A stretch of DNA of 23,278 nucleotides from a virus (Duplodnaviria; Heunggongvirae; Uroviricota; Caudoviricetes): IMG/VR virus record IMGVR_UViG_2562617087_000022; one strand, given 5' to 3'. The position numbers were made by a program, and so were the translations under genes. Of the stretch, positions 1 through 18,787 are shown one piece after another. Numbering within the stretch: the first letter of the stretch is position 1; each line of letters opens with the position of its first letter. Under the pieces are notes generated by a model that worked only from the letters and a program-made list of their open reading frames with translations, was not told where the DNA came from and did not search any database.

Positions 1-549
1 ATGCAATTTAATATCCCTACGTTGCTTACACTGTTCCGTGTCATCCTTATCCCATTCTTTGTATTGGTCTTTTATCTGCCTGTCACTTGGTCGCCGTTTG
101 CCGCCGCGCTCATTTTCTGCGTCGCGGCGGTGACTGACTGGTTCGATGGTTTTCTGGCACGCCGCTGGAACCAGAGTACCCGGTTTGGTGCTTTCCTTGA
201 CCCTGTAGCAGATAAAGTTCTCGTGGCTATCGCCATGGTGCTGGTAACCGAGCATTACCACAGCTGGTGGGTGACCTTACCGGCGGCAACGATGATCGCC
301 CGTGAAATTATTATTTCTGCGCTACGCGAATGGATGGCGGAGTTGGGTAAACGCAGTAGCGTGGCTGTCTCCTGGATTGGGAAAGTGAAAACCACTGCCC
401 AGATGGTGGCGTTGGCATGGCTGCTGTGGCGTCCGAACATTTGGGTTGAGTACGCCGGTATTGCACTTTTCTTTGTGGCTGCGGTACTGACTCTGTGGTC
501 AATGTTGCAATATTTGAGCGCTGCGCGTGCAGATTTGCTTGATCAGTGA
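1..549 (+). CDS. pgsA: Phosphatidylglycerophosphate synthase (CDP-diacylglycerol--glycerol-3-phosphate 3-phosphatidyltransferase)
   Basis: Full 182-aa ORF recognised as E. coli PgsA; hydrophobic membrane protein; sits directly upstream of the glyW-cysT-leuZ tRNA cluster as in E. coli. Confidence 0.93.
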
Positions 550-599
550 TCGTTTCGGCGCAATTTTCAGCAAACGATCAAAAGTGGTGAAAAATATCG

Positions 600-627
600 T
601 TGACTCATCGCGCCAGGTAAGTAGAAT
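600..627 (+). promoter_or_regulatory. Putative sigma70 promoter of the tRNA operon
   Basis: TTGACT (600-605), 16-bp spacer, TAGAAT (622-627), GC-rich stretch downstream; about 70 nt upstream of tRNA-Gly. Confidence 0.4.
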
Positions 628-700
628 GCAACGCATCGAACGGCGGCACTGATTGCCAGACGATAATAAAATCAAGTGATTAACTGATTGCTTGATGAAT

Positions 701-776
<76 letters not shown>

Positions 777-829
777 GTTTAAAAGACATCGGCGTCAGCG
801 GATGTCTGGCTGAAAGGCCTGAAGAATTT

Positions 830-903
830 GGCGCGTTAACAAAGCGGTTATGTAGCGGATTGCAAATCCGTCTAGTCCGGTTCGACTCCGGAACGCGCCT
901 CCA
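830..903 (+). tRNA. cysT: tRNA-Cys (anticodon GCA)
   Basis: 74-nt sequence GGCGCGTTAACAAAGCGGT...GGTTCGACTCCGGAACGCGCCTCCA; GCA anticodon. Confidence 0.95.
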
Positions 904-915
904 CTTTCTTCCCGA

Positions 916-1002
916 GCCCGGATGGTGGAATCGGTAGACACAAGGGATTTAAAATCCCTCGGCGTTCGCGCTGTGCGGGTTCAAGTCCCGCTCCGGGTAC
1001 CA
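916..1002 (+). tRNA. leuZ: tRNA-Leu (anticodon UAA), long variable arm
   Basis: 87-nt sequence GCCCGGATGGTGGAATCGGTAGACACAAGGGATTTAAAATCCC...GGGTTCAAGTCCCGCTCCGGGTACCA. Confidence 0.95.
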
Positions 1003-1046
1003 TGGGAAAGCTAAGAATAAAATCAAAGCAATAAGCAGTGTCGTGA

Positions 1047-1069
1047 AACCACCTTCGGGTGGTTTTTTC
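1047..1069 (+). terminator. Rho-independent terminator of the tRNA operon
   Basis: Stem AACCACC / GGTGGTT with UUCG tetraloop followed by a T6 run. Confidence 0.8.
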
Positions 1070-1540
1070 GTATTTGTATTTTGTGCAATGGCGGTAGAGT
1101 GGCGATGGTGTGGCGATATGCAGAAACAATGGTAGTGCACGTGCTGTTTAAACTCTAAGGATGAAGCAGAATTCTTCTGCAGCTCCTCCGTATTTCGCAT
1201 AGTGAACCAGGACCTCTGTTAAACAAAAATTTTTCTGGGATTTTTCCACTCGACTTTATTTTTCCTCCTGCAATCCACCAACAGGTACCTGCGCTAATCT
1301 ATCTTTTTAATCTGACAACATCTTGGGAAAAGGCAAATTCGTCAGATTTACTGTTTTTCTGCTGCCTCGAATGCCGATGTCTGAAGCACTGATAAGAGTT
1401 CTATCTCTTTGATATAGATCTTTTTTTTGATGAATTGCACGACATATTATCGTTATGACACCTTCTTGTTAAAGGTATTGTGCTCCTCATCTCGATTTTA
1501 TGATGTGGGCTATGATTGGTTAGTAATTGAGTGTATCGGT

Positions 1541-1822
1541 ATGCGATGTGGTTTATTAATGGCAATCTGCCTTTGTTTAGTATCTTTTAGTGGATATGCA
1601 GCAACAGGAAAGTCTGATGCTCAGATCAAAAAAGAAATAATTAAAGAATCCATTGAATCTTATCCAGGCAATTGTGCGTGTCCTTATAATCATGCAAGGA
1701 ATGGTAGTAGATGTGGTGGACGCAGTGCATATAGCCGTAATGGAGGGTATGACGTGGTATGTTATGAGGGTGATGTTACCGATGAAATGATCCGGCAATG
1801 GAAGCAGGAGAATGCTGAGTAA
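1541..1822 (+). CDS. Hypothetical small secreted protein (signal peptide, 5 Cys in mature part)
   Basis: ATG at 1541 inside the 1427..1822 ORF gives MRCGLLMAICLCLVSFSGYAA signal-like N-terminus; AT-rich DNA; weak RBS; function unknown. Confidence 0.4.
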   Translation: MRCGLLMAICLCLVSFSGYAATGKSDAQIKKEIIKESIESYPGNCACPYNHARNGSRCGGRSAYSRNGGYDVVCYEGDVTDEMIRQWKQENAE

Positions 1823-2005
1823 TCTCTTTTAACAGGTTTGTTGTGCGAGCATTATGTGCCGTTAACGGTTCACATCCCGAAAATCTGCGCTTCTGGCTGA
1901 AAGCCTGTCCGGTGGTCCTTCGTGAGCGATTTCATCAACAATGTAAGTGTAGATTCAATTGGTCAACGCAACAGTTATGTGAAAACATGGGGTTGCGGAG
2001 GTTTG

Positions 2006-2146
2006 GAACTATGGAAGAACGGAACAGGCTTCAGTGAAATAGCGAATATCCTGGGTTCAAAACCCGGAACGATCTTCACTATGTTAAGGGATACTGGCGG
2101 CATAAAACCCCATGAGCGTAAGCGGGCTGTAGCTCACCTGACACTG
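2006..2146 (+). pseudogene. insI: IS30 transposase, N-terminal fragment (start codon region missing, cut by IS629)
   Basis: Translates ELWKNGTGFSEIANILGSKPGTIFTMLRDTGGIKPHERKRAVAHLTL matching InsI residues about 15-60; the canonical MRRTFTAEEKASVF N-terminus is absent. Confidence 0.8.
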
Positions 2147-2188
2147 TGAACCGCCCCGGTTTTCCTGGAGAGTGTTTTATCTGTGAAC

Positions 2189-3076
2189 TCAGGCTGCCAG
2201 ATCATCGTTTCTGATGGAAGCATAATAAGCTTTTTCTGCTTCTGCCGGAGGGATATGACCCAGCCTTCCCAGCAATCGTCGATTGTTATACCAGTCCACC
2301 CACGTGAGTGTGGCCAGTTCCACTTCTGCACGGTTTTTCCAGCTCTTACGGTGTATTACCTCCGCTTTGTAAAGACCATTGATGCTCTCCGCCATCGCGT
2401 TGTCATACGAGTCACCTGTACTCCCTGTTGATGCCAGCAGTTTTGCTTCTTTTAGTCGCTCCGTATAGGCCAGTGATATATACTGAGAACCTTTATCACT
2501 GTGATGGACTGTGCCGGACGGCCGACGGGCCCACAACGCCTGCTCCAGTGCATCCAGCACGAATGTCGTTTCCATAGACGATGAGACTCGCCACCCCACG
2601 ATACATCCGGCAAACACATCAATGATGAACGCCACATAGACGAAGCCCTGCCATGTGCTGACGTAAGTAAAATCAGCCACCCACAGCTGGTCAGGACGTT
2701 CTGCCACGAACTGACGGTTTACGCGGTCGCCTGCGGAAACGGCTTTCCGGCTGACGGTAGTACGGACCTTTTTACCCCGGAGAACACCGGCAAGTCCCAT
2801 AACCGCCATGAGGCGCGCCACTGTACATCTGGCCACCCTGATACCTTCGCGTAACAACTGGCGCCAGACTTTACGCACACCGTACACCTGATGATTTTCA
2901 TCGTATACGCGCTGTATCTCTCTCTTCAGCCAGTCATCGCGCTGAGCACGGGCACTGCGTTTATCAGGATGATGTCGCTGTTGCTGACAGTGGTAATACG
3001 TTGACGGGGCAATATGCAGTTCACTGCATACCGGTCCGACCCCGTACTGCTCACGCAGCTTATCCAGCAGCGGCAT
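2189..3076 (-). CDS. IS629 transposase OrfB (DDE integrase domain)
   Basis: 295-aa [18 protein letters not shown]...; recognised as IS629/IS1203 OrfB; a second, truncated copy is at 12118..12795. Confidence 0.9.
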   Translation of the reverse strand: MPLLDKLREQYGVGPVCSELHIAPSTYYHCQQQRHHPDKRSARAQRDDWLKREIQRVYDENHQVYGVRKVWRQLLREGIRVARCTVARLMAVMGLAGVLRGKKVRTTVSRKAVSAGDRVNRQFVAERPDQLWVADFTYVSTWQGFVYVAFIIDVFAGCIVGWRVSSSMETTFVLDALEQALWARRPSGTVHHSDKGSQYISLAYTERLKEAKLLASTGSTGDSYDNAMAESINGLYKAEVIHRKSWKNRAEVELATLTWVDWYNNRRLLGRLGHIPPAEAEKAYYASIRNDDLAA

Positions 3077-3402
3077 TATTTTTTCCAGAGGCGGTCGAAC
3101 TCCGCCTTCGCAAAATAAGCGGAAGCCTGGCGAAGGATATCGTTACTGCGGCGCAGTTCACGATTTTCACGTTCCAGCTCTTTCAGACGCTGACGTTCAG
3201 CGGTGGTGAGTCCACCATCACCACTCCCGGTATCCCGCTCATGCTGACGAACCCACACACGCAGAGTCTCTGGTGTACAGCCAATCTTTGGGGCAATGGA
3301 ACAAATTGCCGCCCATTGTGAGTCATATTCGCCCTGACTTTCCAGAACCATACGAACTGCTCGTTGACGGACCTCGGGGGAAAAACGTGTATTTTTAGTC
3401 AT
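3076..3402 (-). CDS. IS629 OrfA (HTH transposase subunit)
   Basis: 108-aa [29 protein letters not shown]...; the copy at 11792..12118 differs by one residue. Confidence 0.9.
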
Positions 3403-3456
3403 CCTGTTTACCTCTTTCTCAGGGAGTTTAGTCTCCAGGATTCCCGGGGCGGTTCA

Positions 3457-4428
3457 CTGTCTGAGCGCGAGGAGATACGAGCTGGTTTGTCAGCCAAAAT
3501 GAGCATTCGTGCGATAGCTACTGCGCTGAATCGCAGTCCTTCGACGATCTCACGTGAAGTTCAGCGTAATCGGGGCAGACGCTATTACAAAGCTGTTGAT
3601 GCTAATAACCGAGCCAACAGAATGGCGAAAAGGCCAAAACCGTGCTTACTGGATCAAAATTTACCATTGCGAAAGCTTGTTCTGGAAAAGCTGGAGATGA
3701 AATGGTCTCCAGAGCAAATATCAGGATGGTTAAGGCGAACAAAACCACGTCAAAAAACGCTGCGAATATCACCTGAGACAATTTATAAAACGCTGTACTT
3801 TCGTAGCCGTGAAGCGCTACACCACCTGAATATACAGCATCTGCGACGGTCGCATAGCCTTCGCCATGGCAGGCGTCATACCCGCAAAGGCGAAAGAGGT
3901 ACGATTAACATAGTGAACGGAACACCAATTCACGAACGTTCCCGAAATATCGATAACAGACGCTCTCTAGGGCATTGGGAGGGCGATTTAGTCTCAGGTA
4001 CAAAAAACTCTCATATAGCCACACTTGTAGACCGAAAATCACGTTATACGATCATCCTCAGACTCAGGGGCAAAGATTCTGTCTCAGTAAATCAGGCTCT
4101 TACCGACAAATTCCTGAGTTTACCGTCAGAACTCAGAAAATCACTGACATGGGACAGAGGAATGGAACTGGCCAGACATCTAGAATTTACTGTCAGCACC
4201 GGCGTTAAAGTTTACTTCTGCGATCCTCAGAGTCCTTGGCAGCGGGGAACAAATGAGAACACAAATGGGCTAATTCGGCAGTACTTTCCTAAAAAGACAT
4301 GTCTTGCCCAATATACTCAACATGAACTAGATCTGGTTGCTGCTCAGCTAAACAACAGACCGAGAAAGACACTGAAGTTCAAAACACCGAAAGAGATAAT
4401 TGAAAGGGGTGTTGCATTGACAGATTGA
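3457..4428 (+). pseudogene. insI: IS30 transposase, C-terminal portion (disrupted by IS629)
   Basis: From LSEREEIRAGLSAKMSIRAIATALNRSPSTISREV... to ...KEIIERGVALTD stop; colinear with InsI after the IS629 insertion point. Confidence 0.88.
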
Positions 4429-4433
4429 ATCTA

Positions 4434-4703
4434 CAAGTGCCTTTTTTCTGTCAGCGGTTCTCCTTTCCAGCCAATGAGAACCGTCAGGCGCGCGCCCCGT
4501 GGCGGTAGCTGCAACTGACCATCTGCATCATCCAGCGTGATGGTGAGCTGGTCCGCCTCAAATCCCCGGTTGTCGGTCAGTGACAGGCTCATCAGGCGCT
4601 CTGCCACGCCTGACAGCGTTTTACCCTCCGCGAGAATATCAAAATCCGGCACTTTCACGTGGTCTGTGCCCTGACTGAGCAATTGCATGGTGGTGTCGGT
4701 CAT
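4434..4703 (-). pseudogene. Phage tail protein D-like (Phage_GPD family), N-terminal fragment
   Basis: RBS AGGGAGG then ATG at 4703; ...LSLTDNRGFEADQLTITLDDADGQLQLPPRGARLTVLIGWKG resembles the N-terminal motif of P2 gpD-type proteins; only about 90 codons remain; the stop codon is supplied by the IS30 terminus. Confidence 0.5.
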
Positions 4704-4860
4704 CTGTTCCCTCCCTGTGCGGCATGGTCGCATGTGCGTGCGGAGGGGGTTACTGCTTTTTGTTGTCGCCGTGGCGGGAGAACGGCGCAGGGGTGAGATT
4801 ACGCGCGTGGTGGGTGATGATTGTTGCCGAATCATTTAACGGATACAAGGGGCTGAAGCT

Positions 4861-6045
4861 ATGAGTGAAACTCGTTTTCATGGTGCCCGTGTTACGGAAA
4901 GTACCGACCTGGTAACAGCGATTAATGATGTTGATTCCAGTGTTATCGGTATCGTGGCAACGGCAGATGATGCGGACGCGGAGCTGTTCCCGCTGAACAA
5001 GCCCACACTGCTGACCCGCGTCAATGACGTGCTGGGAAAATGCGGGACTACGGGGACGCTTTATCGTGCGCTTAAGGCTATCGCAGACCAGGTGAGCACA
5101 AAAGTGATCGTCGTTCGCGTGGCTGAACACAAAGAAGAAGGCGGTAAGACGCAGGATCAACTGGTTATCGGTGGTTCTGAATCTGACGGCAGCTATACGG
5201 GGATGTATGCGCTGCTTGTTGCAGAGCAGGATGAAAGCATCGGATACCGTCCGCGTATTCTGGCCGCGCCGGAGCTGGACACGGAGGCGGTAACAAAATC
5301 CCTGTGCGTGATTGCGGGTAAACTGCGCGCGTTTGTGTATGCCACATGTCATGGTTGTAACACGATGGCTGAGGCGATTACCTACCGCCAGAAATTCAAC
5401 GAACGTGAGGTGATGCTCTTATGGCCTGACTTCATCGCCTACAACCTGAAAAGTGGCAAAAACGAAACGTTCCCCGCGCCTGCTTATGCGTGCGGCCTTC
5501 GTGCGTACATTGACCATGAGCAGGGCTGGCACAAATCGCTGTCCAACGTTCCGGTTAAAAATGTGCTTGGGATGTCGAGGCATGTGTTCTGGTCGTTGCA
5601 GGCCGAAGACAGTGATGCCAACAGCCTCAACAACAAAGAAATCACGACCATTATTCGTCGCAACGGGTTCCGCTTCTGGGGCAACCGCACACCGGAAACG
5701 AACGCCTACATCTTTGAGGTGTATACCCGAACCGCACAGGTGCTGGCTGATTCAATTGCGGAAGCGCAGTTTGAAACCATCGACAGTCCACTGACACCTG
5801 CGAACGTGAAGGATGTTATCAGTGCCATCAGGGCAAAACTGGATTCACTGGTTACTGCCGGGAAACTGATTGGCGCGGAGTGCTGGTATGACATCGAGGA
5901 TAACAGCACCACGAATTTACGTCAGGGGCGTGTGCGTATTCGCTACAAATATACGCCCGTTCCTCCGCTGGAAGACATGGAGCTTTACCAGTCGTTTACT
6001 GATGAATTCTTTGGTCCCGCATTTGCGGTGCTGGGAGGTGCCTGA
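4861..6045 (+). CDS. Contractile tail sheath protein (P2 FI-like)
   Basis: 394-aa ORF with RBS AAGGGG; recognisable similarity to the P2 FI sheath (e.g. ...LWPDF..., ...GFRFWGNRT..., ...YTPVPPLE...). Confidence 0.9.
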   Translation: MSETRFHGARVTESTDLVTAINDVDSSVIGIVATADDADAELFPLNKPTLLTRVNDVLGKCGTTGTLYRALKAIADQVSTKVIVVRVAEHKEEGGKTQDQLVIGGSESDGSYTGMYALLVAEQDESIGYRPRILAAPELDTEAVTKSLCVIAGKLRAFVYATCHGCNTMAEAITYRQKFNEREVMLLWPDFIAYNLKSGKNETFPAPAYACGLRAYIDHEQGWHKSLSNVPVKNVLGMSRHVFWSLQAEDSDANSLNNKEITTIIRRNGFRFWGNRTPETNAYIFEVYTRTAQVLADSIAEAQFETIDSPLTPANVKDVISAIRAKLDSLVTAGKLIGAECWYDIEDNSTTNLRQGRVRIRYKYTPVPPLEDMELYQSFTDEFFGPAFAVLGGA

Positions 6046-6557
6046 TGGCTGTACCAAAACATCTTCGCTTTTTTACGCTGTTTGTGGATGGTGAAAACGA
6101 AGTGGGTAAGGTGACGTCCGTCACCCTGCCTAAACTGACGCGCAAAACCGACAGCTACCGGGGTGGTGGCATGATGGGTGCGGTAAGTATTGACCTCGGC
6201 CTGGACGACTCCGCGCTTGATGCGAGCTTTGTCATGGGGGGCGCAGTTCGTGAGCTGTTCCTGAAGTATGGCGGCACGATTGACGGCACGCTACTGCGTT
6301 TTGCGGGGGAATACTACACCGATGATGAAAGCGACCTGTATGAAGTCGAAATGCGCGGACGTGTGACGGAAATTGATATGGGGGAAGCCAAACAGGGCGA
6401 AGCCACATCACACACTTACGCCATTAAAAACACCTACTACAAGCTGAGTGTTAACGATCGCCCGTTGTGGGAGATTGACCTGCTGAACTTCATTTACCGG
6501 AAGGACGGCAAGGACATTGTGCCCGATCGCATCCGTTCCGCGCTTGGGCTTGGCTGA
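6045..6557 (+). CDS. Tail tube protein (P2 FII-like)
   Basis: 170-aa ORF, start overlaps FI stop (TGATG); ...LPKLTRK...YRGGGM...LRFAG... pattern as in P2 FII. Confidence 0.88.
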   Translation: MAVPKHLRFFTLFVDGENEVGKVTSVTLPKLTRKTDSYRGGGMMGAVSIDLGLDDSALDASFVMGGAVRELFLKYGGTIDGTLLRFAGEYYTDDESDLYEVEMRGRVTEIDMGEAKQGEATSHTYAIKNTYYKLSVNDRPLWEIDLLNFIYRKDGKDIVPDRIRSALGLG

Positions 6558-6611
6558 TAAGTAATATGCAGGCGGCGCAGTGCGTCGCCTCTGACTGAAA
6601 GGAGTTTCCTG

Positions 6612-6977
6612 ATGAAAGAGACGAAAAACATCGATACCGAAAACACGGTAGTTACTGACACTGTGAAAGAAACCAGTGAGCGTGGTGTAAAACTTACCCA
6701 ACCAATTGAGCGAGGCGGCGAAAAAATCACGTATGTGGAGATCACCGGGGCTATTGAGCAGGCTGGATCTCTGCGAGATTTGTCGCTGTCTGATGTGCTG
6801 AATCTGAAAGCGGAATCCATGTTTACGCTGCTGTCACGCGTGACATCACCGCGACTGGATGAAGTGACGATCAAAAAAATGGCATCCCGTGACTTTATTC
6901 AGTTATGTGTGGTTGCCGTAAATTTTTTGAGCGGTGCGGACTCTGGCGGGAAGAACGAACAGGCGACGGAAGCCTGA
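6612..6977 (+). CDS. Tail assembly chaperone (P2 gpE-like)
   Basis: 121-aa ORF with RBS AAGGAG; position between tube and tape measure; contains a TTTTTTG slippery site near the 3' end. Confidence 0.75.
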   Translation: MKETKNIDTENTVVTDTVKETSERGVKLTQPIERGGEKITYVEITGAIEQAGSLRDLSLSDVLNLKAESMFTLLSRVTSPRLDEVTIKKMASRDFIQLCVVAVNFLSGADSGGKNEQATEA

Positions 6978-7141
6978 TCACGGTTGTGTGCTTTGAGCAC
7001 ATAGAAGACTTTGTGGCAGATATTGCCGTTATTTTTAACTGGTCGCCCGCCGAAATCTTCATGATGACGCCCGGCGAAGTGGTTAGCTGGCGTGAGCGGG
7101 CGGCACTTCGCAGCGGGAATGCAGACAATGAAGACTCTTGA
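6612..7141 (+). CDS. Tail assembly chaperone E+E' (predicted -1 frameshift extension product)
   Basis: The -1 frame ORF 6905..7141 overlaps the 3' end of E and ends inside the start of T, as in P2 E/E' (analogous to lambda G/GT). Confidence 0.55.
6923..6929 (+). promoter_or_regulatory. Putative -1 programmed ribosomal frameshift slippery heptamer T-TTT-TTG
   Basis: Heptamer in the E reading frame (codons AAT TTT TTG), upstream of the E stop and inside the overlapping -1 ORF. Confidence 0.5.
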
Positions 7142-9931
7142 TATCCGGGTCGCTTTCAGCGCCGTTGACAGGCTGACCCGACCTGCCGAAAACGCACGCC
7201 GCCTGATGGGGCAGTTTGGTGACTCCATCCAGCGAACGCAGGGGGCGATCAAAAATCTCGAGCGTCAGGCGCGATCATTTGAGCGCGCCCGCGACGCTGT
7301 CAGTAAAGCGGATGCTGGCATCGTGAAAGCACGACGCCAGCTTAACGCCCTTAATCAGTTACAACGCACGGGTACAGTGCTCAGCGAAAAACAACAAAAG
7401 CTGATGCAGCAGTTAAGCACCCGGCTTGAACGCCTGAATGAATCGCGCACACGGGAAATTCAGAAAATGAGGGAACTTGGCGGAGAGCTGAAACGCCACG
7501 GCATTTCCCTGACAGGCAGCGATAACACCATTCAGCAGGCCATCAGACGCACCGAACAATACAACAACCAGCTTGAACGCGAACGGCAGGCGCTTGCGCG
7601 TGTAACGCAGGCGCGTGAGCGGTATTCGCACGCGCAGGAAACCGCGGGAAAACTGAAAACAGGTGGTGCGCTGGCAATTGGTGCGGCAGCGGCGGGCGGC
7701 TATGCTGCCGGGCGTTTTTTGCAGCCTGCGATCGGGTTCGGCAAAGAGATGTCCCGCGTTCAGGCACTGACGCGAATCGACAAAAACAGCCCGCAGTTTA
7801 AGGCGCTGCGTGAGCAGGCGTTAAAACTTGCTGAAACACAGTTTACTGCGAGTGATGCCGCCAGTGGGCAGAGCTTTCTGGCAATGGCTGGTTTTACTCC
7901 GCAGGCCATTCAGGCCGCATTGCCCGGTGTTCTTAATATGGCGCTGGCAGGTGGCGTCGAACTCGGCGAGACGGCTGATATAGGCTCCAATATCCTCACA
8001 CAGTTCAACCTGACAGCCGATCAAATGGACCGGGTGGGCGATACGCTGACAGCAGCATTTACCCGGACCAATACTGATTTACGCGCGCTGGGCGAAACCA
8101 TGAAGTATACCGGTCCGGTTGCCGCAAAACTTGGTATCAGTCTTGAAGAAGCGGCGGCCATGGCCGGGATGCTTGCCAATAATGGTCTTCGCGGAAGCGA
8201 TGCTGGCACGGCCATGCGCGCAAGTCTGTCCCGCCTTGCATCACCGCCAAAAGCTGCGGCTGATGCACTGAAAGAGCTGGGGGTGTCAGTTGCTGACGCC
8301 AGAGGCAAAATGCGCCCGATGGAGGATGTGCTGCTTGATCTCTATAAGGCGACACAAAAATACGGACAGGTGGACCAGGTCTCCTTCTTCAAGGACATCG
8401 CCGGAGAAGAGGCGTTCGTTGGTTTGCAGACGCTTGTTGCGGCGGCTGGTTCAGGAGAGCTGCAAAAACTGACCAGAGAATTGCAGGGGGCAAGGGGAGA
8501 GGCCGATCGCGTCGCAAAAGTAATGGCTGATAATCTTGATGGGGACCTGAAAAATCTCGACAGCGCATGGGAAGGTCTTCGTATTCGCATCAGTGATCTG
8601 GTTGACGGTCCGCTGCGTTCTGTCACGCAGTGGCTCACGCGGGTGCTTGAAAAAATCACCTCGCTGGCGCAGGCCCATCCGGTACTGACGCGCCAGCTAC
8701 TGATAGCAGGCGGTGCGTTGCTGGCAATGACTGCAACGATTGGCTCGTTGTCGCTGGTTATTGGGGTGCTTTACGGGAAGCTGGCCACCCTGCGTCTTGG
8801 TTTTGACATTCTTACCCGGTCAATGAATGTCGTCAGGGTGTTACCTGCGCTATGGGGAATGGTGACGGGTTCCGTTTCTTTACTGGGAGGCGTTATCGGG
8901 GCGTTGTTCAGTCCGGTTGGTCTTATCGTGGCTGCGCTTGCCGGAGCTGCCGTTCTTATCTGGAAATACTGGGATCCTATCAGGGCTTTCTTTGCCGGGG
9001 TGTTCAGCGGGATTATGGAAAGGCTGACCCCGTTGCGCGACACCTTTGAACGGTTTGGCCCTGTTTTTGACGTAATCGGAAGCGGTTCAGCCAGGTGTTT
9101 AACTGGTTTAAATCGCTGCTGTCACCGATGGAGTCCAGCAAGGAAACGCTGGATAAATGTACCAGTGCTGGCGAGGTATTCGGTAACGTTCTTGGTGGTG
9201 CGTTACAGCTTGTTCTGACGCCTGCAAAAATGTTGCTGGATACGCTGGCGTGGATACTTGAAAAACTCGGTGTGCTTCCGGATGAAGCGGAAAGGGCGCG
9301 CAAGAAAATCGAAGACGCACAACGTGCGGCCATTCTTCAGGACAAGGTTGCTCTGTTTCAGGGAGACATTGCGAAAATCAATCCGCCGAAGTCTGCGGGA
9401 AATAGCAATGGCACCGGAGATGATAAACCCAAAGACAACAAACCTCTCACAGACAGCAATACCGGCACGCTACGCAGACTCAGCAAAATTGCTGATAACA
9501 CAGGTAAGCTGGTTGATGAGACAAAAAAACGCATTGGCCCCGGCGATATTGTCTTTAAGAACCTGCCCCGCGCACTTGCTGTTCGTGGGGAGTGGCAGGA
9601 GCGGAAGATTGCGCAGGTCAGTAAGCCTGCCCCCGCAATTAATATCACACCCGTGGTCCCGGCTCCGCTGCCTCCGGCGCTGGTCCCTGTTGTTGCGGCC
9701 AGCTCCCGCCCGGTGGTGGAGGCCATACGATCGCCAGTGGCATCAGTTCCTGCAACTTCCCGTAACCGGGAGCCTGTTGCCTCCGGATTTGGCGGTGAAA
9801 TTCATGTTCATCTGCATAACGTTGTTACGCAGAATCCCCGCGAACTGGCGAAACTGGTCGGCGAAATGGTCAGGGCAGAAATGGAACGGCGCGCCCGTGC
9901 CAGGCGTGGCAGTTTTTACGATAAAGATTGA
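7119..9931 (+). pseudogene. Tail tape measure protein (P2 gpT-like), apparently frameshifted near 9071-9095
   Basis: Coiled-coil and Gly/Ala-rich tape-measure-like sequence in frame 0 up to about 9080, then protein-like sequence continues in another frame (ORF 9095..9931); a 1-nt change in the short T run near 9086 would restore one roughly 937-aa ORF. Confidence 0.72.
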
Positions 9932-9937
9932 GGAGTC

Positions 9938-10432
9938 ATGGCCATGATGATGATCTACGGCATGTTTGTTTTTGAGCTGCGCACGTTGCCGCATCAGCAG
10001 TTACAGCAAAACAAAAGCTGGCGACATGTGAAAAATGAACGCGTTAACCGTTCAGCAAGCTGGCAGTATATCGGTGCAGGTGATGATCGCATCGTTCTTT
10101 CTGGTGTTCTTTATCCTGAGATTACTGGTGGCGAAGTGTCGCTGTCGTTGTTGACCACGCAGGCATATACAGGACGTCCTTGGCCTTTGATTGATGGCGT
10201 CGGGCAGATTTACGGCATGTATGTCCTGACCGGAACGAATACGACCCGCTCCGAGTTTGATCGCTACGGTAAGGCGAAAAAGATAGAATTTTCACTGACT
10301 CTTGAACGCTGTGATGAGGATTTGCGGGAGCGCCTGCAATCCTCATCGTTCAGCGATATGCTGTCCGGCTTCAAAGATAAGGTGACATCATCCCTTAATA
10401 GCGCGGCCAGCTCAGTTAAGGGGCTGCTCTGA
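9938..10432 (+). CDS. Tail protein (P2 gpU-like)
   Basis: 164-aa ORF with RBS GGAG; N-terminus MAMMMIYGMFVFELRT... and WPLIDG motif resemble P2 gpU; follows T. Confidence 0.8.
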   Translation: MAMMMIYGMFVFELRTLPHQQLQQNKSWRHVKNERVNRSASWQYIGAGDDRIVLSGVLYPEITGGEVSLSLLTTQAYTGRPWPLIDGVGQIYGMYVLTGTNTTRSEFDRYGKAKKIEFSLTLERCDEDLRERLQSSSFSDMLSGFKDKVTSSLNSAASSVKGLL

Positions 10433-10508
10433 TTTAACGTATGTCGCCAATTTCCTGATGAAGGTGACTGGCGACTTGCTGTTGTATGTCCTTCTCAGAA
10501 AATTGTTT

Positions 10509-10537
10509 TTGAATAACAAATAACAGGATTTTATAAT
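10509..10537 (+). promoter_or_regulatory. Putative sigma70 promoter of the acetyltransferase moron
   Basis: TTGAAT (10509-10514), 17-bp spacer, perfect TATAAT (10532-10537), in AT-rich DNA about 50 nt upstream of the RBS. Confidence 0.45.
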
Positions 10538-10588
10538 CTCTTAACCTTATAACATGTGTGGTCTGAAATAATAATTAAGGAGATTATC

Positions 10589-11161
10589 GTGCTATCTTAC
10601 TTAATGGCAATTCACTTTGTTTTATTTGGAAACTCTACTAATTTAAAAAACTTCTGGAAACATGAAGTAATTCGGCGGAAACGTATGGATATCTGGAGGC
10701 TTTTAAGAGAGAAAAAGCAGCGTAACCGGAATTTCCTTTTCTGGTGGCGGTTGGCTAACGAAATGTATATTAATGGTAATAAATTACATAAGAAAGCAGC
10801 CAAAAAGTTAAACAGTAAAATAATTAACAAGTTTGGTTGTGAAATAGGATTGGGCGCAAATATTGGAAAAGGGTTGACAATTCCCCATCATGCTGGAATT
10901 GTTGTTCATTTTGCTGTTGATGCGGGTGAAAATCTGGTATTACGACAGAATACTACCATTGGACAGATAGATGGTGATATGCCTAGTTCAAGAGTAAAAA
11001 TTGGTAGTAACGTTGATATCGGAGCTAATTGTTGCATCATTGGATTATCACGTAAAATTGGGGATAATGTAAAAATAGGTGCAATGTCTTTTATAAATAA
11101 AGATATACCATCAAACTGCACATATATAACTAAAAAGAGTGGTGTTGTATTGTATAAATAG
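10589..11161 (+). CDS. Hexapeptide-repeat O-acetyltransferase (CysE/WcaB-like, left-handed beta-helix)
   Basis: GTG start at 10589 behind a strong AAGGAG RBS (alternative ATG at 10604); ...GCEIGLGANIGKGLTIPHHAGIVVHFAVDAGENLVL...IGSNVDIGANCCIIG... hexapeptide repeats; AT-rich; own promoter and terminator. Confidence 0.75.
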   Translation: MLSYLMAIHFVLFGNSTNLKNFWKHEVIRRKRMDIWRLLREKKQRNRNFLFWWRLANEMYINGNKLHKKAAKKLNSKIINKFGCEIGLGANIGKGLTIPHHAGIVVHFAVDAGENLVLRQNTTIGQIDGDMPSSRVKIGSNVDIGANCCIIGLSRKIGDNVKIGAMSFINKDIPSNCTYITKKSGVVLYK

Positions 11162-11170
11162 AGTACATAA

Positions 11171-11209
11171 AGCCATCGATATTTCTGTCGATGGCTTTTT
11201 CTTTTTATT
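11171..11209. terminator. Bidirectional intrinsic terminator between convergent acetyltransferase and tfa genes
   Basis: Perfect 9-bp stem AGCCATCGA / TCGATGGCT with 8-nt loop, followed by TTTTCTTTTTATT on the + strand. Confidence 0.65.
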
Positions 11210-11737
11210 GTGGGGCGACTGGCCACTCAACATCCGCTGCTACTGTTGTATCAACACGATTCAACAATACCCGATATGTCTTCCATGCAGCCAGTAACGA
11301 TGCCTCTTCCTCCGTCGCAATATCCAAATCTACGGCATCCTGAAGTGGCGCAATATGCTCACTGGCTACCTGCATCAGGCTGTTTTTTGTTTCTTCTGCC
11401 TCCCGTACCCGAAACAGTTTTTCTGCTTCTGCATCTTTCGCCCAGGATGTGCCGTTCCACTTCTGACACTCTCCATCCGGCGACAACCAGGTAACATTTT
11501 CCGGTAACGGACCGAGTTCAGAAATAAATAACGCGTCGCCGGAAGCCACGTCATAAACCGTTTTACCCCGATGATCTTCAACGAGATGCCACGATGCCTC
11601 ATTACTGTTGAAAACAGCCACGAAGCCAGCCGGAATATCTGGCGGTGCAATATCGGTACTGTTTGCTGGCAGACCTGTATGAGGCGGAATGTATGCGTCA
11701 CCTTCACCAATAAATTCATTAGTTCCGGCCAGCAGAT
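11205..11737 (-). pseudogene. Tail fibre assembly protein (lambda Tfa / P2 G family), 5'-truncated by IS629
   Basis: Reading frame continues upstream of the listed ORF to the IS629 end: [51 protein letters not shown]...; about the first 16 codons are missing. Confidence 0.85.
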
Positions 11738-11791
11738 TGAACCGCCCCGGGAATCCTGGAGACTAAACTCCCTGAGAAAGAGGTAAACAGG

Positions 11792-12118
11792 ATGACTAAA
11801 AATACACGTTTTTCCCCCGAGGTCCGTCAACGGGCAGTCCGTATGGTTCTGGAAAGTCAGGGCGAATATGACTCACAATGGGCGGCAATTTGTTCCATTG
11901 CCCCAAAGATTGGCTGTACACCAGAGACTCTGCGTGTGTGGGTTCGTCAGCATGAGCGGGATACCGGGGGCGGTGATGGTGGACTCACCACCGCTGAACG
12001 TCAGCGTCTGAAAGAGCTGGAACGTGAAAATCGTGAACTGCGCCGCAGTAACGATATCCTTCGCCAGGCTTCCGCTTATTTTGCGAAGGCGGAGTTCGAC
12101 CGCCTCTGGAAAAAATAA
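11792..12118 (+). CDS. IS629 OrfA (second copy)
   Basis: 108-aa ORF, one substitution relative to the copy at 3076..3402. Confidence 0.85.
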
Positions 12119-12795
12119 TGCCGCTGCTGGATAAGCTGCGTGAGCAGTACGGGGTCGGACCGGTATGCAGTGAACTGCATATTGCCCCGTCAACGTATTA
12201 CCACTGTCAGCAACAGCGACATCATCCGGATAAACGCAGTGCCCGTGCGCAGCGCGATGACTGGCTGAAGAGAGAGATACAGCGCGTATACGATGAAAAT
12301 CATCAGGTGTACGGTGTGCGTAAAGTCTGGCGCCAGTTGTTACGCGAAGGTATCAGGGTGGCCAGATGTACAGTGGCGCGCCTCATGGCGGTTATGGGAC
12401 TTGCCGGTGTTCTCCGGGGTAAAAAGGTCCGTACTACCGTCAGCCGGAAAGCCGTTTCCGCAGGCGACCGCGTAAACCGTCAGTTCGTGGCAGAACGTCC
12501 TGACCAGCTGTGGGTGGCTGATTTTACTTACGTCAGCACATGGCAGGGCTTCGTCTATGTGGCGTTCATCATTGATGTGTTTTCCGGATGTATCGTGGGG
12601 TGGCGAGTCTCATCGTCTATGGAAACGACATTCGTGCTGGATGCACTGGAGCAGGCGTTGTGGGCCCGTCGGCCGTCCGGCACAGTCCATCACAGTGATA
12701 AAGGTTCTCAGTATGTATCACTGGCCTATACGGAGCGACTAAAAGAAGCAAAACTGCTGGCATCAACAGGGAGTACAGGTGACTCGTATGACAAT
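12118..12795 (+). pseudogene. IS629 OrfB, C-terminally truncated
   Basis: Matches the first OrfB copy through ...STGSTGDSYDN, then non-homologous codons and a stop; the DDE domain is incomplete. Confidence 0.85.
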
Positions 12796-12826: not shown

Positions 12827-13141
12827 TTATTCTGGGAATAAGGTCTGAATATTCTTTTTTATTTTATAAAAATTGCATTCAACTCCGCTAGGCTGATTAG
12901 CCTGGTATGTTTCCTTGATGCTAACGGTATTGAAGGGGAGGTTGTCCTCTGGCCATTCGGCCATCCAGTAGGCAAATGCTGGGTTGCGCTTTATGAGTGC
13001 TAGCCCAGCCAGAAAGGCCGCGCGTTGCGCGCGGCTGCGTTCGGAGGCTGGCAGGCTATCGAGGTAATTGCACGCCTCCTGTTCACTCTTGACGGCGGCG
13101 GGCTTCAGATAGAAACTTATCCGTCTGGTTGGTGTCGTCAT
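12827..13141 (-). CDS. parR: ParR/StbB-like ribbon-helix-helix centromere-binding protein
   Basis: 104-aa ORF 4 nt downstream of parM; N-terminal ...DSLPASERSRAQRAAFLAGLAL... resembles R1 ParR; the C-terminal third is AT-rich and divergent. Confidence 0.65.
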   Translation of the reverse strand: MTTPTRRISFYLKPAAVKSEQEACNYLDSLPASERSRAQRAAFLAGLALIKRNPAFAYWMAEWPEDNLPFNTVSIKETYQANQPSGVECNFYKIKKNIQTLFPE

Positions 13142-13145
13142 TGGT

Positions 13146-14105
13146 TTACTCCTTGTTCATTGCGTACAACCCATTAACCAGAGCAAACTGTGGCACCCCG
13201 TCCGCGATGAAAGTCGCATTAACTCCGCAGGCTTCGCGGATAGCGGTTGCCACAATCTCCGCCCCGCCACCGACAACCATCACCCGCCCGTAACCCGAAA
13301 AAACCGCCAGCGCGCGGATCACGCGTTGTTTCAGTGTTTCTTCCTTTTCACGAATAACCGCCATCAGGCTGGCGTAATGCGCGTCATTGTGGATGTGCTG
13401 GCGCAGCCAGGCTTCATCATGGCGATGTTCGATAATGGTATTGGCGATGTGGTGACTGGTGCGCATACCGTTAGTGGCCATCACCGACAGTACGGCATCG
13501 GCCATCAGAGAAACGCCTACGTGTGGATCGCAAAACACCTGGCTGATACCTGCCAGTTGCCCCTGAACCTTTGCCACATCCAGCGTGGTTCCGCCCAAAT
13601 CCACAATCAGCAGGGATTCAAACGGACTCATGTCAGCCAGTGCCTTAAAGCCAGCAGGAATGGATTCAGGCATAACCCGTACGTTACGGATAGTGAATGC
13701 TTCGCCGTTCTGGTACTCCACCGGGCGCATGACGTTCGCTTTTTTGCGGTTGATGTTGGCCATGTCCGGCTGTGCGTTTGTATCGAAATACTCGCTCAGT
13801 GGCAGGGTGACAACCACATCCACTTCCTGTGGTGTGATGCCTGATTTGACCAGCGCGTGATGAATGGCAATTACATTCACATCGCTGTACTGGTATTGCG
13901 TGTCGGTCGTCTGGACAAAGCGATCGCTGACCGGATCAAAACCATAGCGCACGCCATCAAGCATGTAGTTCGCGGGCTGCGTGCCACCGAATGGCGCAGA
14001 CCATTCCGACTTGAAGCTGTTCGGGCTGATGGCGTTGCGGCGTTCGCCGTTCTCAGTCCATGCCAGCTTGATGTTGGTGGAGCCGTCGTCGATACAAATT
14101 TTCAT
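13146..14105 (-). CDS. parM: ParM/StbA actin-like plasmid segregation ATPase
   Basis: 319-aa ORF; clear colinear similarity to R1 ParM (MK.CIDDGSTNIKL..., ...YSDVNVIAIHHAL..., ...VMPESIPAG..., ...DLGGTTLD..., ...GGGAEI...). Confidence 0.9.
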   Translation of the reverse strand: MKICIDDGSTNIKLAWTENGERRNAISPNSFKSEWSAPFGGTQPANYMLDGVRYGFDPVSDRFVQTTDTQYQYSDVNVIAIHHALVKSGITPQEVDVVVTLPLSEYFDTNAQPDMANINRKKANVMRPVEYQNGEAFTIRNVRVMPESIPAGFKALADMSPFESLLIVDLGGTTLDVAKVQGQLAGISQVFCDPHVGVSLMADAVLSVMATNGMRTSHHIANTIIEHRHDEAWLRQHIHNDAHYASLMAVIREKEETLKQRVIRALAVFSGYGRVMVVGGGAEIVATAIREACGVNATFIADGVPQFALVNGLYAMNKE

Positions 14106-14133
14106 GTCGCTTTTCCTTATGTTGATTAATTAA

Positions 14134-14252
14134 TCGGTTACAGGATTTTTAAATCCCGCTTTTGCCTGTTTTGTGCGCGCTTCATATATCGCGGCGCGTT
14201 TTTTGCTCATTTACGGGATTTGTGAGTCCCGTTTCTGTCTGTTTTTTGTTTC
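14134..14252. repeat. Two imperfect direct repeats of about 36 bp (iteron-like), straddling the 3' end of gene A upstream of parM
   Basis: ACAGGATTTTTAAATCCCGCTTTTGCCTGTTTTGTG (14134-) and ACGGGATTTGTGAGTCCCGTTTCTGTCTGTTTTTTG (14213-); each has an internal short inverted repeat. Confidence 0.35.
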
Positions 14253-17004
14253 CACTGGTCAGGCCACCCCGCAGCAGGTCTGCTTTGCGGCTGGCGCGTT
14301 CAGTGGTTTCACTGATTCTCTGTGCGTGCTCTGCGTCGCGGATGGCGCGCAGCATGTCAGAAAGCACGGTAACGGGTGTTTTCATGGTGTTCTGGTCCTG
14401 CTGAAGTGTGGATGCCAGGCGTGCGGCGGCTTCAGGGTCTGATGCCCCCAGCTGTGCCAGATAGCTGGCGACCGGGTTATGGCGGATCTCCGTGCTGCTT
14501 ACGCCATGATTACGGCTCAGGCGCTGCCAGAGCTGCGTGATTCGGCTGTCCGGGCGGGTATCCGGTTTGCGTACAATTTCAAATCCCTGCGGTGCAATGA
14601 TGCTGCCGTCAACGTACAGACTGCCGCCCCGTAACAGGTGCTGCATCTGTTGTTCACCGATATGCAGGCCGAGAGATTCAGCAGACTCCCGCCATTCTTT
14701 AGCGAGTAATTCGTGGTTATCAGGCAAAGGCCGCTGCTGTTTGCGGCTCTGTGTCCAGCTCTGCATTTCATCACTGCTGTTTTTTGCCTGTTTGTCACGA
14801 AGCGAACGCATCAGCGCCCGGCGTTCGTGCCGTTTCAGTGAGCGCATCCATTCGTTCACGTCAACGCCGTCAGGAAGCTGCGGCCACGGTGCTGGCCGTT
14901 CTTCCGGCTGTTCTGTCCCGTTGTTGTCCGTTTCCTGTACACGGGGACAGTTATTGCCACGAGTCCAAGGGGCGGCAGGGCCGCCCTGAAGGTCAAAACC
15001 ATTTTCGCGGGCGCTGTCTTCTACTCCCGGTTTACGTCTTACCAGCTTCCAGTTATCCGGGTGCGTGCACACACGGGAGGATTCCCCGATGAGTGGTGAC
15101 CAGATCCCGTAAATCTGTACGCTCTGTTCGCCGTAATCGTTCAGCTCATCTGCGAGGTCGTAGGCGGTGCGAATCAGGTAGTCCTTGCGTGGAACAAGTA
15201 CGCCTCCCTGTTTCTCAATGTAGGTGGTAAAACATCCGGCATCAGCGGCAGCAAGAACCGCATCCATTGCGTCATCCTTCAGCCGTTGCGGGCCTTCCGG
15301 GTTGCGTGCCATCTGGCTGGCAAGGCGACGCAGTTCACGCCACACCTGACGGGAGGGGATGCCAAAGAACTGGAACTGGCGGACCCGGTGAAGGCGCGCC
15401 CAGCCAATGGCGCGTTCCACGCTCTCGGTCATTGATTTTCCGGTTTCGTGGTCAACGCGTGGTTTGCCTGTTTTCGGGTCGATGCCATCCACGGCGCGGC
15501 TGTCCAGGTTTTTTCCGATGTAGGTGGCGATGTAGCTGGTTGGCGTGCCTTTTGAGCCGTCGACATACTCCGCCTTAAAGCGCGGAGTAATATCATCGCC
15601 CAGCTCGTGACGATCTTCCTGAATGGCAATATCGCGGGTGTGGGACACAATGGTGTCGATTTCTTCCGGATGAGCAAAGACCATCATATGCCAGTGCACG
15701 GTGCCGTCATGGTGAGGCTCCACCGTGCGGATGCCATACCAGCGCAGGCCGTCGCGGTTCAGTTTCTTGCGGACCGCCGCAAAAAACGTGTTAACCAGGT
15801 AATCGCTGGAGTCGCGCATGGTGGCCCCGTTCCATTTGGGATTCGGATGACCGTTCTCTGTTGTAGCGTGGTATTTTGACGGGCAGGTGACAGTCAGAAA
15901 CACCGCTTTGTCGCCACGGGCTTCGGCCAGAAGTTCCAGCCCCTTCATGGTGGCCATCATTTCTGCCTTACGGTGAACCGGGTTACTTACTCCCGCGTAA
16001 TACACTGTCTCGAGATCAATCGTGAACCCGTCTTCGTTTTCCAGCATGAAACTTTTCAGGAAATCGCGTGTTTTCTCGCGCTGTGCGCGAAACTCGCTTA
16101 ACGCGTCCTGGCTCAGATAGGGCGATGTTTTTCTGGAAACCAGACAGGCGGCGCGGAGTTGTTCTTCTCTCCACTCGCAACGTAACAGCCACAGTTTGCG
16201 TTTCCACCATTCCGCACAGGTCAGGCGAAGGATTGCGCCCGGCAGCAGCTCCGTGTCCGGTTCGTTCCTCCGGTCTTTGTCTGTTGTCAGTGCGTCATAA
16301 TGTGGAGGCATGGCGTGCAGGTGTAACGCCATGCGGGCCAGCATCTGATACGCCTTCAGCGTTACATCCATGGTCAGTTCGCCATCGGTCGCGCCAAAGC
16401 CATCGCAGAGTTTTTCGAAGGTGCTGCTGAACATCGCCGCCGTCATGGTGGCCAGCGTCTGTATCTGGTGTTTGTTGAGCTGCGGCAGGTAAAGCAAATC
16501 GTCCAGGCGTTCGCGTCCGGCAAGGGAGCGATAACCCTGTGTCAGCCAGCGGTGATCGGTGCGCTCCAGACGTTCGAATATTTTGCGCAGGTTTCCGCGC
16601 GCGTAGCGTTCAGCCTGCCAGCTCTTTTTGCCTTTCTGACGATCGGCTTCCTGTTTTTTGCGCAGGAAGGAGAGGTGGCGAATAAGCGGATCGCGCAGAT
16701 AGGACGGCAGCAGGCGCAGCGAGGCCATGGCTTCATCCACCGCACCGCGTGCCTGTTTTCTGGCGTCTCCTGCCAGTGTGATGGTTTTGTCCTGTTTTTC
16801 CTGTGCGTCCAGGCTTTTATTAATCAGGTTGCCCAGCGGCGTTGCGGAGAACGCCGCATCAGCCATTTCCTGGCGGCGCTCGTTCTCTACCCGGTAGGCA
16901 TCCAGCCAGGAGGAAAGCGCGGATTCAGGAGCGGGGATCCCCGTTCCTTCACGCCCCACTGCGTGGCGCGGTTGTTGCCAGTCCCTGATGTACTCTGCCG
17001 TCAT
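14182..17004 (-). CDS. Rolling-circle replication initiation endonuclease (P2 gpA-like)
   Basis: 940-aa ORF; HUH-type motif ...EPHHDGTVHWHMMVF... and tyrosine motif ...TSYIATYIGKNL... typical of P2/186 A proteins. Confidence 0.9.
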   Translation of the reverse strand: MTAEYIRDWQQPRHAVGREGTGIPAPESALSSWLDAYRVENERRQEMADAAFSATPLGNLINKSLDAQEKQDKTITLAGDARKQARGAVDEAMASLRLLPSYLRDPLIRHLSFLRKKQEADRQKGKKSWQAERYARGNLRKIFERLERTDHRWLTQGYRSLAGRERLDDLLYLPQLNKHQIQTLATMTAAMFSSTFEKLCDGFGATDGELTMDVTLKAYQMLARMALHLHAMPPHYDALTTDKDRRNEPDTELLPGAILRLTCAEWWKRKLWLLRCEWREEQLRAACLVSRKTSPYLSQDALSEFRAQREKTRDFLKSFMLENEDGFTIDLETVYYAGVSNPVHRKAEMMATMKGLELLAEARGDKAVFLTVTCPSKYHATTENGHPNPKWNGATMRDSSDYLVNTFFAAVRKKLNRDGLRWYGIRTVEPHHDGTVHWHMMVFAHPEEIDTIVSHTRDIAIQEDRHELGDDITPRFKAEYVDGSKGTPTSYIATYIGKNLDSRAVDGIDPKTGKPRVDHETGKSMTESVERAIGWARLHRVRQFQFFGIPSRQVWRELRRLASQMARNPEGPQRLKDDAMDAVLAAADAGCFTTYIEKQGGVLVPRKDYLIRTAYDLADELNDYGEQSVQIYGIWSPLIGESSRVCTHPDNWKLVRRKPGVEDSARENGFDLQGGPAAPWTRGNNCPRVQETDNNGTEQPEERPAPWPQLPDGVDVNEWMRSLKRHERRALMRSLRDKQAKNSSDEMQSWTQSRKQQRPLPDNHELLAKEWRESAESLGLHIGEQQMQHLLRGGSLYVDGSIIAPQGFEIVRKPDTRPDSRITQLWQRLSRNHGVSSTEIRHNPVASYLAQLGASDPEAAARLASTLQQDQNTMKTPVTVLSDMLRAIRDAEHAQRISETTERASRKADLLRGGLTSGNKKQTETGLTNPVNEQKTRRDI

Positions 17005-17010
17005 AGTGAT

Positions 17011-17376: not shown

Positions 17377-17448
17377 TGCGGCAATCCTCTTGTTACAGAT
17401 GTGCGAAGGCCTCCCGCCGCAAGGTGCAGGAAAGGCCCGGAACAGGAA

Positions 17449-17679: not shown

Positions 17680-17848
17680 GGTGTGGCCTCTTTGCTCGGT
17701 GATAGAAATAACTCACCATCCAGAGTTGAGAATCTCGGGGTGGCGAGACGTACAGGGTTCTCAACACCGGAGAGCAAAGAATCCGGCCCGACCGAAGTCG
17801 GCCCCGTACGCCCCGCCATAATTCTGACGCGAAAAAGACGTGGCAATA

Positions 17849-17870
17849 CAGTACGCACAAAAAAACCGCT
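17849..17870 (-). terminator. Candidate intrinsic terminator (minus-strand transcript)
   Basis: Short GC stem AACCGC / GCGGTT with 4-nt loop, then 7 U on the minus strand; weak stem. Confidence 0.4.
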
Positions 17871-18764: not shown

Positions 18765-18787
18765 TGCGCCCCCTTTGTCCAGTAACC

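Follow-up and report, generated by a model that had tools for sequence, protein, structure and literature searches.

Tail gene block of an E. coli O157:H7 prophage

We analysed a 23,278-nucleotide (nt) stretch of DNA, hereafter the window (IMG/VR record IMGVR_UViG_2562617087_000022), with a focus on its phage tail gene block FI-FII-E-E'-T-U, whose orientation differs from that in phages P2 and 186. The window matches chromosomes of E. coli O157:H7, for example those of TW14359 and EC4115, at 100% identity, and at least 80% of it was found at one place in 262 complete E. coli genomes. It extends from pgsA and three tRNA genes at one end to a phage integrase gene beside yecA. The element that it carries is a decayed P88-like (Xuanwuvirus-type) prophage of the P2 family, located in a tRNA-Leu gene of E. 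coli O157:H7.

The genes of the block lie on the plus strand. The first of them, FI (4861-6045), encodes the tail sheath (Pfam PF04984, PF22671 and PF17482), and its product is 45% identical to FI of P2 and 98% identical to FI of phage P88_4B11. It is followed by FII (6045-6557), encoding the tail tube (PF04985, E = 1e-47), and by two ORFs at the place expected for the tail assembly chaperone pair, the putative E (6612-6977) and E' (6986-7141). RefSeq names these two products 'tail protein' and 'GpE family phage tail protein', and their positions match those of gp27 and gp26 of P88_4B11; E gave no matches in Pfam and NCBIfam. The tape measure gene T (7128-9931; PF10145) is a pseudogene, which RefSeq marks as frameshifted. 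The last gene of the block, U (9944-10432; PF06995), encodes a tail protein that is 46% identical to U of P2.

The genes on either side of the block are on the minus strand. To the left is D' (4431-4703), a truncated copy of tail gene D consisting of its first 87 codons, three foreign codons and a stop. D' is 98% identical to residues 1-87 of P88_4B11 D and 59% identical to the N-terminus of P2 D. To the right lies tfa' (11205-11738), a tail fibre assembly gene without a start (PF02413, Caudo_TAP), and farther along is the replication gene A (14182-17004; Pfam Phage_GPA). Homologues of the sheath, the tube, the tape measure, gpU and gpD are all clustered in the window and represent the contractile-tail cluster of the P2 family (Peduoviridae). 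A first-pass annotation, made from the sequence, had placed FI, FII, E, T and U on the plus strand and A, tfa and the D fragment on the minus strand, and the Pfam matches and the alignments to P2 and P88_4B11 bear this out. It had also located the edges of the block correctly: the starts of D and FI diverge across a 157-nt spacer (4704-4860), and U ends at 10432.

Comparison with P2 and 186

In the maps of P2 and 186, G/tfa, FI to U, D, ogr/B and A are co-oriented, and int is in the opposite orientation. D is the last gene of the operon in these phages, and its start overlaps the end of U. This canonical synteny is absent from the window, where FI to U are on the plus strand and D', tfa' and A are on the minus strand, so the maps of both phages support the earlier claim that FI to U are inverted relative to P2 and 186. 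The block shares with the F operon of P2 and the J operon of 186 six or seven genes in the same internal order, and a motif resembling an activator site stands equally far upstream of the sheath gene. The difference is that the block is co-oriented with G/tfa, D and ogr/B in those phages, whereas it is inverted here and D stands back to back with FI.

One breakpoint of the inversion separates FI from the cargo slot on the tfa side, and the other lies between U and D. P2-type relatives with an invertase gene by FI (loci L073, L074, L076 and L081) have the order I H tfa ... invertase FI..U D ogr, all on the plus strand. P88-type genomes have I H tfa ... invertase(+) U..FI(-) D(+) ogr(+), and the sole difference is the orientation of FI-U. 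The variable cargo slot has stayed on the tfa side in both orders; it contains Z/fun in P2, an invertase gene in some relatives, a gene for a DUF262 protein in a Klebsiella phage and an acetyltransferase gene in the window. The acetyltransferase gene therefore sits in the position of Z/fun, beside tfa, as the first-pass annotation had suggested.

Intact relatives with the same gene order

We found the gene order of the window in intact phages. In P88_4B11 (genus Xuanwuvirus), the annotated order is H(+), tfa(+), invertible segment, invertase(+), U T E' E FII FI(-), D(+), ogr(+) ... int(-) ... A(+), and the map of the type phage P88 is the same. P88, which was obtained by induction of E. coli K88, is a plaque-forming phage with contractile tails (PMC5285337). 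An active phage of Citrobacter rodentium, phiSM, has been described as P88-like (PMC6456863). In Klebsiella phage ST16-OXA48phi5.4 (genus Reipivirus) and Serratia phage KSP20, D-ogr is likewise divergent from FI-U. Thus P88, P88_4B11, ST16-OXA48phi5.4 and KSP20 natively have the orientation that the first-pass annotation had taken for a rearrangement, and the anomaly that it implied is thereby refuted.

In P88 and P88_4B11 (Peduoviridae, Xuanwuvirus; NC_026014 and NC_049391), the genes D, FI, FII, E, E', T, U, tfa, parR/parM and A are arranged and oriented as they are in the window. The nucleotide identity is 91.6% over D' and FI to U, and 95.4% over the early region. The D|FI spacer is 157 nt in both and contains the same motif. 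In addition, the synteny of the P88 type, in which D-ogr diverges from FI and U converges with tfa/H across the cargo slot, is present in the window.

The alignments to two relatives cross the proposed breakpoints. Positions 4435-10438 of the window align with P88_4B11 in a single collinear blastn alignment (6,028 nt, 91.6%), which begins within D', crosses the spacer and reaches the end of U. Positions 4435-11738 align in a single piece (7,329 nt, 92.4%) with locus L014, part of a 36.5-kilobase (kb) IMG/VR contig, where U is followed by the same acetyltransferase gene and tfa, and then by H and I. Because these collinear alignments cross both proposed breakpoints, the two breakpoints are native junctions. 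The homology to the relatives ends exactly at 4435 and 11738, which are the boundaries of insertion sequences (IS).

Distribution and phylogeny of the two gene orders

To survey the gene order, we used 80 IMG/VR loci retrieved with the sheath alignment and 80 loci from species-representative bacterial genomes. All IMG/VR loci whose FI is 54-100% identical to that of the window have the order ogr(-) D(-) | FI FII T U(+) | cargo | tfa(-) H(-) I(-). Loci whose FI is 49-50% identical, the same distance as P2, all have the P2 order. The species-representative loci gave the same division: with FI identity of at least 58%, 23/23 loci were of the P88 type, and with FI identity of at most 51%, 50/50 were of the P2 type. 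The 23 loci come from 13 genera of Enterobacterales (Salmonella, Citrobacter, Edwardsiella, Enterobacter, Kosakonia, Symbiopectobacterium, Mixta, Erwinia, Pantoea, Trabulsiella, Izhakiella, Klebsiella and Pectobacterium). Among the records of the phage collection, FI identity is at least 60% in 44 and below 60% in 360.

Neighbour-joining trees were made for FI, D, U and FII, and each parts the two gene orders by one branch (68 vs 10 loci). Since the split in gene order follows the protein phylogeny, we conclude that the inversion of FI-U relative to P2 and 186 is ancient and clade-defining, and a single event is the economical reading. Within E. coli, a 701-nt probe covering IS30', D', the spacer and FI showed D, spacer and FI to be contiguous in 1,342 of the 5,426 complete genomes, including those of O111:H8 and ST131.

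Two sets of loci in the survey stood apart. In locus L102 (Trabulsiella odontotermitis NZ_JNGH01000101.1), D(-) and FI..U(+) are arranged as in the P88 type, with I and H downstream of U on the plus strand. This layout represents either a further rearrangement or an adjacent second element. Loci L090 and L142 are contigs of Vagococcus sp. WN89Y, an assembly labelled as a Gram-positive genus. One prophage in it is of the P88 type, and its FI shares 97% identity with that of the E. coli prophage; another is of the P2 type. The WN89Y assembly is likely contaminated with enterobacterial DNA.

Origin of the inverted orientation

Taken together, these data indicate, with a probability of about 0.95, that the orientation of FI-U is the native, inherited order of a P88-like branch of the P2 family, and that no inversion took place at the window locus. 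None of the counter-evidence that we noted touches this reading. In this branch, transcription of FI-FII-E-E'-T-U natively runs away from D-ogr and towards the tail fibre genes, which are convergent with it. A single ancient inversion probably turned the FI-U block together with its Ogr-type late promoter, and became fixed in an ancestor that a large group of Enterobacterales prophages have in common. The single inversion put forward in the first-pass annotation does separate the window order exactly from that of P2 and 186. What did not hold is its place and direction, because the event does not belong to the window locus and P2/186 does not represent the native state.

Several other explanations account for the orientation in different ways. 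A P2/186-like ancestor could have given rise to the window order by an inversion of FI-U within this prophage or within the O157:H7 lineage, as would be in keeping with an orientation unlike that of P2 and 186 and with a prophage that is otherwise heavily rearranged by IS elements. We consider such a local event very improbable, since continuous homology to intact, IS-free relatives spans both breakpoints and the same order occurs in all relatives down to 54% FI identity. The breakpoints also lack inverted repeats: as the first-pass annotation had noted, none links 4704-4860 and 10433-10500. An inversion mediated by IS elements was rejected in particular, because the IS copies lie outside the proposed breakpoints and 4435-11738 is collinear with IS-free relatives. 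A block placed in the wrong orientation during assembly has even less to recommend it, and its probability is negligible. Nothing beyond the departure from the P2 order speaks for it, while 262 complete genomes, each assembled independently, have the identical arrangement over the whole window, 1,342 complete genomes have the D|FI junction, and separately sequenced phage genomes share the order. Intact relatives that natively have this order, and homology that is unbroken across both breakpoints, thus argue against rearrangement and misassembly at the locus alike. The least improbable of these alternatives, though still unlikely, is that flanking IS copies have brought together a tail block and an early/replication block from separate phages. 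IS elements do lie at both sides of the tail segment (2189-4428 and 11739-12795), the tail and early segments differ in their identity to P88_4B11 (91.6% vs 95.4%), and the integrase is about 40% identical to that of P88_4B11. However, mosaic identity and swapped integrases are usual among such phages. The order D'(-) FI..U(+) cargo tfa'(-), gap, parR parM A(-) ... int(+) within one pair of attachment (att) sites fits two internal deletions, and a junction of two elements would leave the native D|FI and U|tfa junctions unexplained.

The orientation could also be one state of a reversible recombinase switch, with FI-U being invertible like the segments of Mu and P1 or the H/tfa segment of P88, or being flipped between copies of IS629. 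P88-type phages often have a serine invertase gene directly beside U, and the two IS629 copies of the window are in opposite orientation. The block resembles the known serine-invertase switches (Mu G/Gin, P1 C/Cin and P88 H/tfa) in that tail genes are oppositely oriented and an invertase adjoins them in many relatives. It differs from them in having no crossover sites at its edges, no invertase and no orientation polymorphism. The window contains no invertase gene, and no inverted crossover sites of the Gin/Cin/Hin type were found at 4704-4860 or 10433-10500. In P88_4B11, gix-like sites flank only the H/tfa segment (21518-21547 and 24200-24229 in locus L005) and none occurs at the FI-U edges; an invertase-mediated origin of the FI-U orientation was rejected on this ground. 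Both orientations were never seen among the IMG/VR and species-representative relatives. A flip between the two inverted IS629 copies was also rejected: with respect to A, both D' and tfa' are oriented as in the native order, and the segment between the copies is therefore unflipped. We regard a switch as being as improbable as an inversion in the O157:H7 lineage, and the inherited P88-type order remains the explanation that we favour.

The gene order itself is already known, as it is present in deposited and annotated reference phages, and the prophage is a described element. One result bears against calling it known: our literature searches on P88, Xuanwuvirus and inversion in Peduoviridae returned no explicit account of an inverted F block or of its promoters, and the inversions mentioned in the literature that we found concern the tail-fibre segment. 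Because no paper was found that discusses the gene order explicitly, its status as known rests on the annotated genomes.

These observations show that P2 and 186 are not a synteny reference for all P2-family prophages, as a large Enterobacterales branch has the operon from the sheath gene to U inverted. The branch takes in Xuanwuvirus, Reipivirus, Serratia phage KSP20 and prophages of at least 13 genera, and the P88-type D|FI junction is found in about a quarter of the complete E. coli genomes. The same false alarm will therefore recur whenever prophages are scanned for deviations from the P2 order.

A candidate late promoter in the D|FI spacer

The native divergent intergenic region between D and FI (4704-4860) is 157 nt long in the window and in 25 close relatives, and about 140-185 nt across the P88 type. 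It contains one TGT-N12-AGA element, TGTCGCCGTGGCGGGAGA, at 4764-4781, the centre of which is 88.5 nt upstream of the ATG of FI. Exactly one TGT-N12-A(G/C)A element was found in 62/62 distinct P88-type spacers, centred 76.5-89.5 nt upstream of the FI ATG, where simple arithmetic gives a chance expectation of about 0.07 per spacer. For comparison, the distance from the sheath ATG to the centre of the upstream activator site is 82.5 nt for the annotated site of P2 pF and about 82 nt (81.5) for the B-protein site of 186 pJ; both contain TGT-N12-CCA. By its form and position, the window element is a putative activator site of the Ogr/B/Delta type, which in P2 and 186 is a TGT-N12-ACA-like partial dyad with its centre some 55 nt before the transcription start and about 82 nt before the sheath ATG.

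We also found hexamers resembling -10 elements on both sides of the motif. In the window they are weak and lie 43.5 nt either side of the motif centre: GATGAT (4816-4821) on the FI side, and GACCAT (4729-4724, minus strand) on the D side. When the relatives are anchored on the motif, conserved -10-like hexamers appear about 42-44 nt from the centre on both sides. Those on the FI side are GATGAT or GATTAT; on the D side, many relatives have GTGAAATCAT and the P88 subgroup has GCGACCAT.

These features point to a late promoter that would have moved together with the inverted FI-U block. The inversion would have split D, with ogr, off the F operon and set D back to back with pF, and one central Ogr-type site would then drive both FI-U and D(-ogr). 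This shared activation is proposed because there is one central motif with hexamers on both sides, and because of the likeness to pP/pO of P2. In P2, a single annotated activator site (3057-3087) lies midway between the divergent late starts at 3016 and 3127, and the D|FI spacer too has one dyad-like site with -10-like hexamers about 43 nt either side. The two differ in that pP/pO was mapped experimentally, whereas the D|FI promoter is deduced from sequence and has a tight D-side spacing to the start codon in the P88 subgroup.

Some details weigh against the shared promoter. The motif centre of the P88 subgroup is just 69.5 nt from the ATG of D, and the leader would be only about 14 nt there if the D-side hexamer is a real -10 element. 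The D-side hexamer of the window, GACCAT, is weak, and the D start codons of the more distant relatives are estimates. We therefore offer it as a tentative proposal, at slightly less than even odds, that a single activator site may serve two divergent late promoters, so that the layout of pP/pO would recur elsewhere in the genome. If this is true, P88-type phages would express the tail-completion gene D and feed back on ogr via a bidirectional late promoter. A bidirectional D|FI late promoter was not described in the literature searched. The conserved spacer of 140-185 nt with a single activator-like site is a compact candidate for such a promoter, and it is the only mildly new lead of this analysis.

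Decay of the window copy

What is specific to this copy is decay, not inversion. Compared with P88 and P88_4B11, it is a defective copy, with truncated D and tfa genes and a frameshift in T, and it lacks ogr, H and the baseplate, lysis, head and cos regions. A complete IS3-family element (IS629-like) occupies 2189-3402 on the minus strand (RefSeq; open reading frames (ORFs) 2189-3076 and 3076-3402). It is followed on the plus strand by an IS30 transposase fragment without its N-terminus (3454-4428), as annotated by RefSeq in the identical O157:H7 sequence. The IS30 matches of the 701-nt probe stop at about query positions 136-148, corresponding to about 4435-4447 of the window, and the phage homology starts at 4435. 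This IS block stands in for the 3' three-quarters of D, for ogr and for the cargo on the attL side.

On the other side of the tail remnant, RefSeq and the comparison with the P88_4B11 map place a partial, frameshifted IS3-family (IS629-like) copy at 11739-12795 on the plus strand. This copy has taken the place of H, of the genes for baseplate, lysis, head and packaging, and of cos. The translation of tfa' has no initiator; the gene is cut by the end of IS629 at about 11739, and its homology to loci L014, L012 and L050 ends at 11738. T has lost one nucleotide at about 9083-9086 in comparison with four intact relatives (P88_4B11, which is L005, and L012, L014 and L050), and this deletion leads to a stop at 9218. 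As judged from the sequence, the tail block is non-functional in the window copy, because D is cut after codon 87, ogr is gone, T is frameshifted, and IS elements have truncated or deleted tfa, H and all the baseplate and head genes. What remains has the gene order and strands expected after two internal deletions in one integrated P88-type genome.

The whole tail remnant is enclosed by the two IS629-like copies, which are oppositely oriented, and the window represents the unflipped state. Recombination between the copies could invert 3403-11738 in some strains.

The cargo slot and the acetyltransferase gene

P88 has a DNA invertase gene and an invertible H/tfa segment; the window copy has the acetyltransferase gene instead. 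This gene is part of a low-GC (about 38%) moron on the plus strand between U and tfa (10509-11198). The moron consists of a sigma70-like promoter (10509-10537), a gene for a hexapeptide-repeat O-acetyltransferase (10589-11161) and a strong, bidirectional terminator with a 13-bp stem (11169-11198). The acetyltransferase scored below every NCBIfam cut-off (best EpsC, 76 vs 150 bits), and its sequence assigns it at the family level, as a CysE/WcaB/EpsC-like hexapeptide acetyltransferase. A role as a known defence gene was rejected, as PADLOC gave no match.

The same gene was found in the same slot of L012, L014 and L050, with 98-99% amino-acid identity. It also occupies this slot in the far more distant locus L043 (FI 73%), with 71% identity. 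Because the gene is also present in L043, we infer that it moves as a moron within the cargo slot.

A 20-nt inverted repeat (85%) at 10449-10468 and 11697-11716 flanks the acetyltransferase gene and tfa', and not the FI-U block. Its second arm (11697-11716) lies inside the N-terminal coding part of tfa. The repeat could derive from an alternative tfa copy that once formed part of an ancestral invertible segment, or be due to chance.

Setting of the prophage in the chromosome

The left attachment repeat (attL side), located by direct-repeat comparison, lies at 948-1084 and overlaps the 3' part of tRNA-Leu(taa) (916-1002). The att direct repeat is 137 nt long with 94% identity and a spacing of 22,436 nt in the window locus (L001), which gives a prophage length of 22.4 kb. 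The partner copy is past the right end of the window, 107 nt after int, at about 23384-23520 in window numbering. The window is one base longer than the TW14359 RefSeq record (23,278 vs 23,277 nt), with the extra base at about 4430, at the IS30/D' junction. TW14359 RefSeq coordinates are accordingly window coordinates minus 1 to the right of about 4430.

The early/lysogeny region (12827-23278) belongs to the same prophage and contains parR and parM (-), A (-), small early genes (-), a repressor region (+) and int (+; 22277-23278, from the ORF list and the RefSeq annotation). The segment 12996-18775 gave the nucleotide identity of 95.4% to P88_4B11. The window integrase is only about 40% identical to that of P88_4B11, and the integration site, tRNA-Leu, is a further difference from P88 and P88_4B11. 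Genes for ParR-like and ParM-like plasmid partition proteins (12827-14105) lie directly downstream of A, as in P88 and P88_4B11, and PADLOC gave no matches for them.

CP-933T of EDL933 is the counterpart of prophage Sp13 of O157 Sakai. According to the part of the published account that describes it, Sp13 is the sole P2-like prophage of Sakai, lacks most morphogenetic genes and ogr, and has a P4 epsilon-like gene (PMC2669165). The same part of that account does not comment on the orientation of the Sp13 tail block. In the RefSeq annotation of the window, a 'derepression protein' gene is present and ogr is absent. Because the O157:H7 origin, the same missing functions and the 'derepression protein' gene fit the description of Sp13, we infer that the window prophage is Sakai Sp13.

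A shorter form of the element was found in locus L028 (IMGVR_UViG_2537562015_000005, 3-8759). There, D and FI to U are directly followed by an integrase 100% identical to that of the window, and this locus appears to be a still more deleted version of the same prophage.

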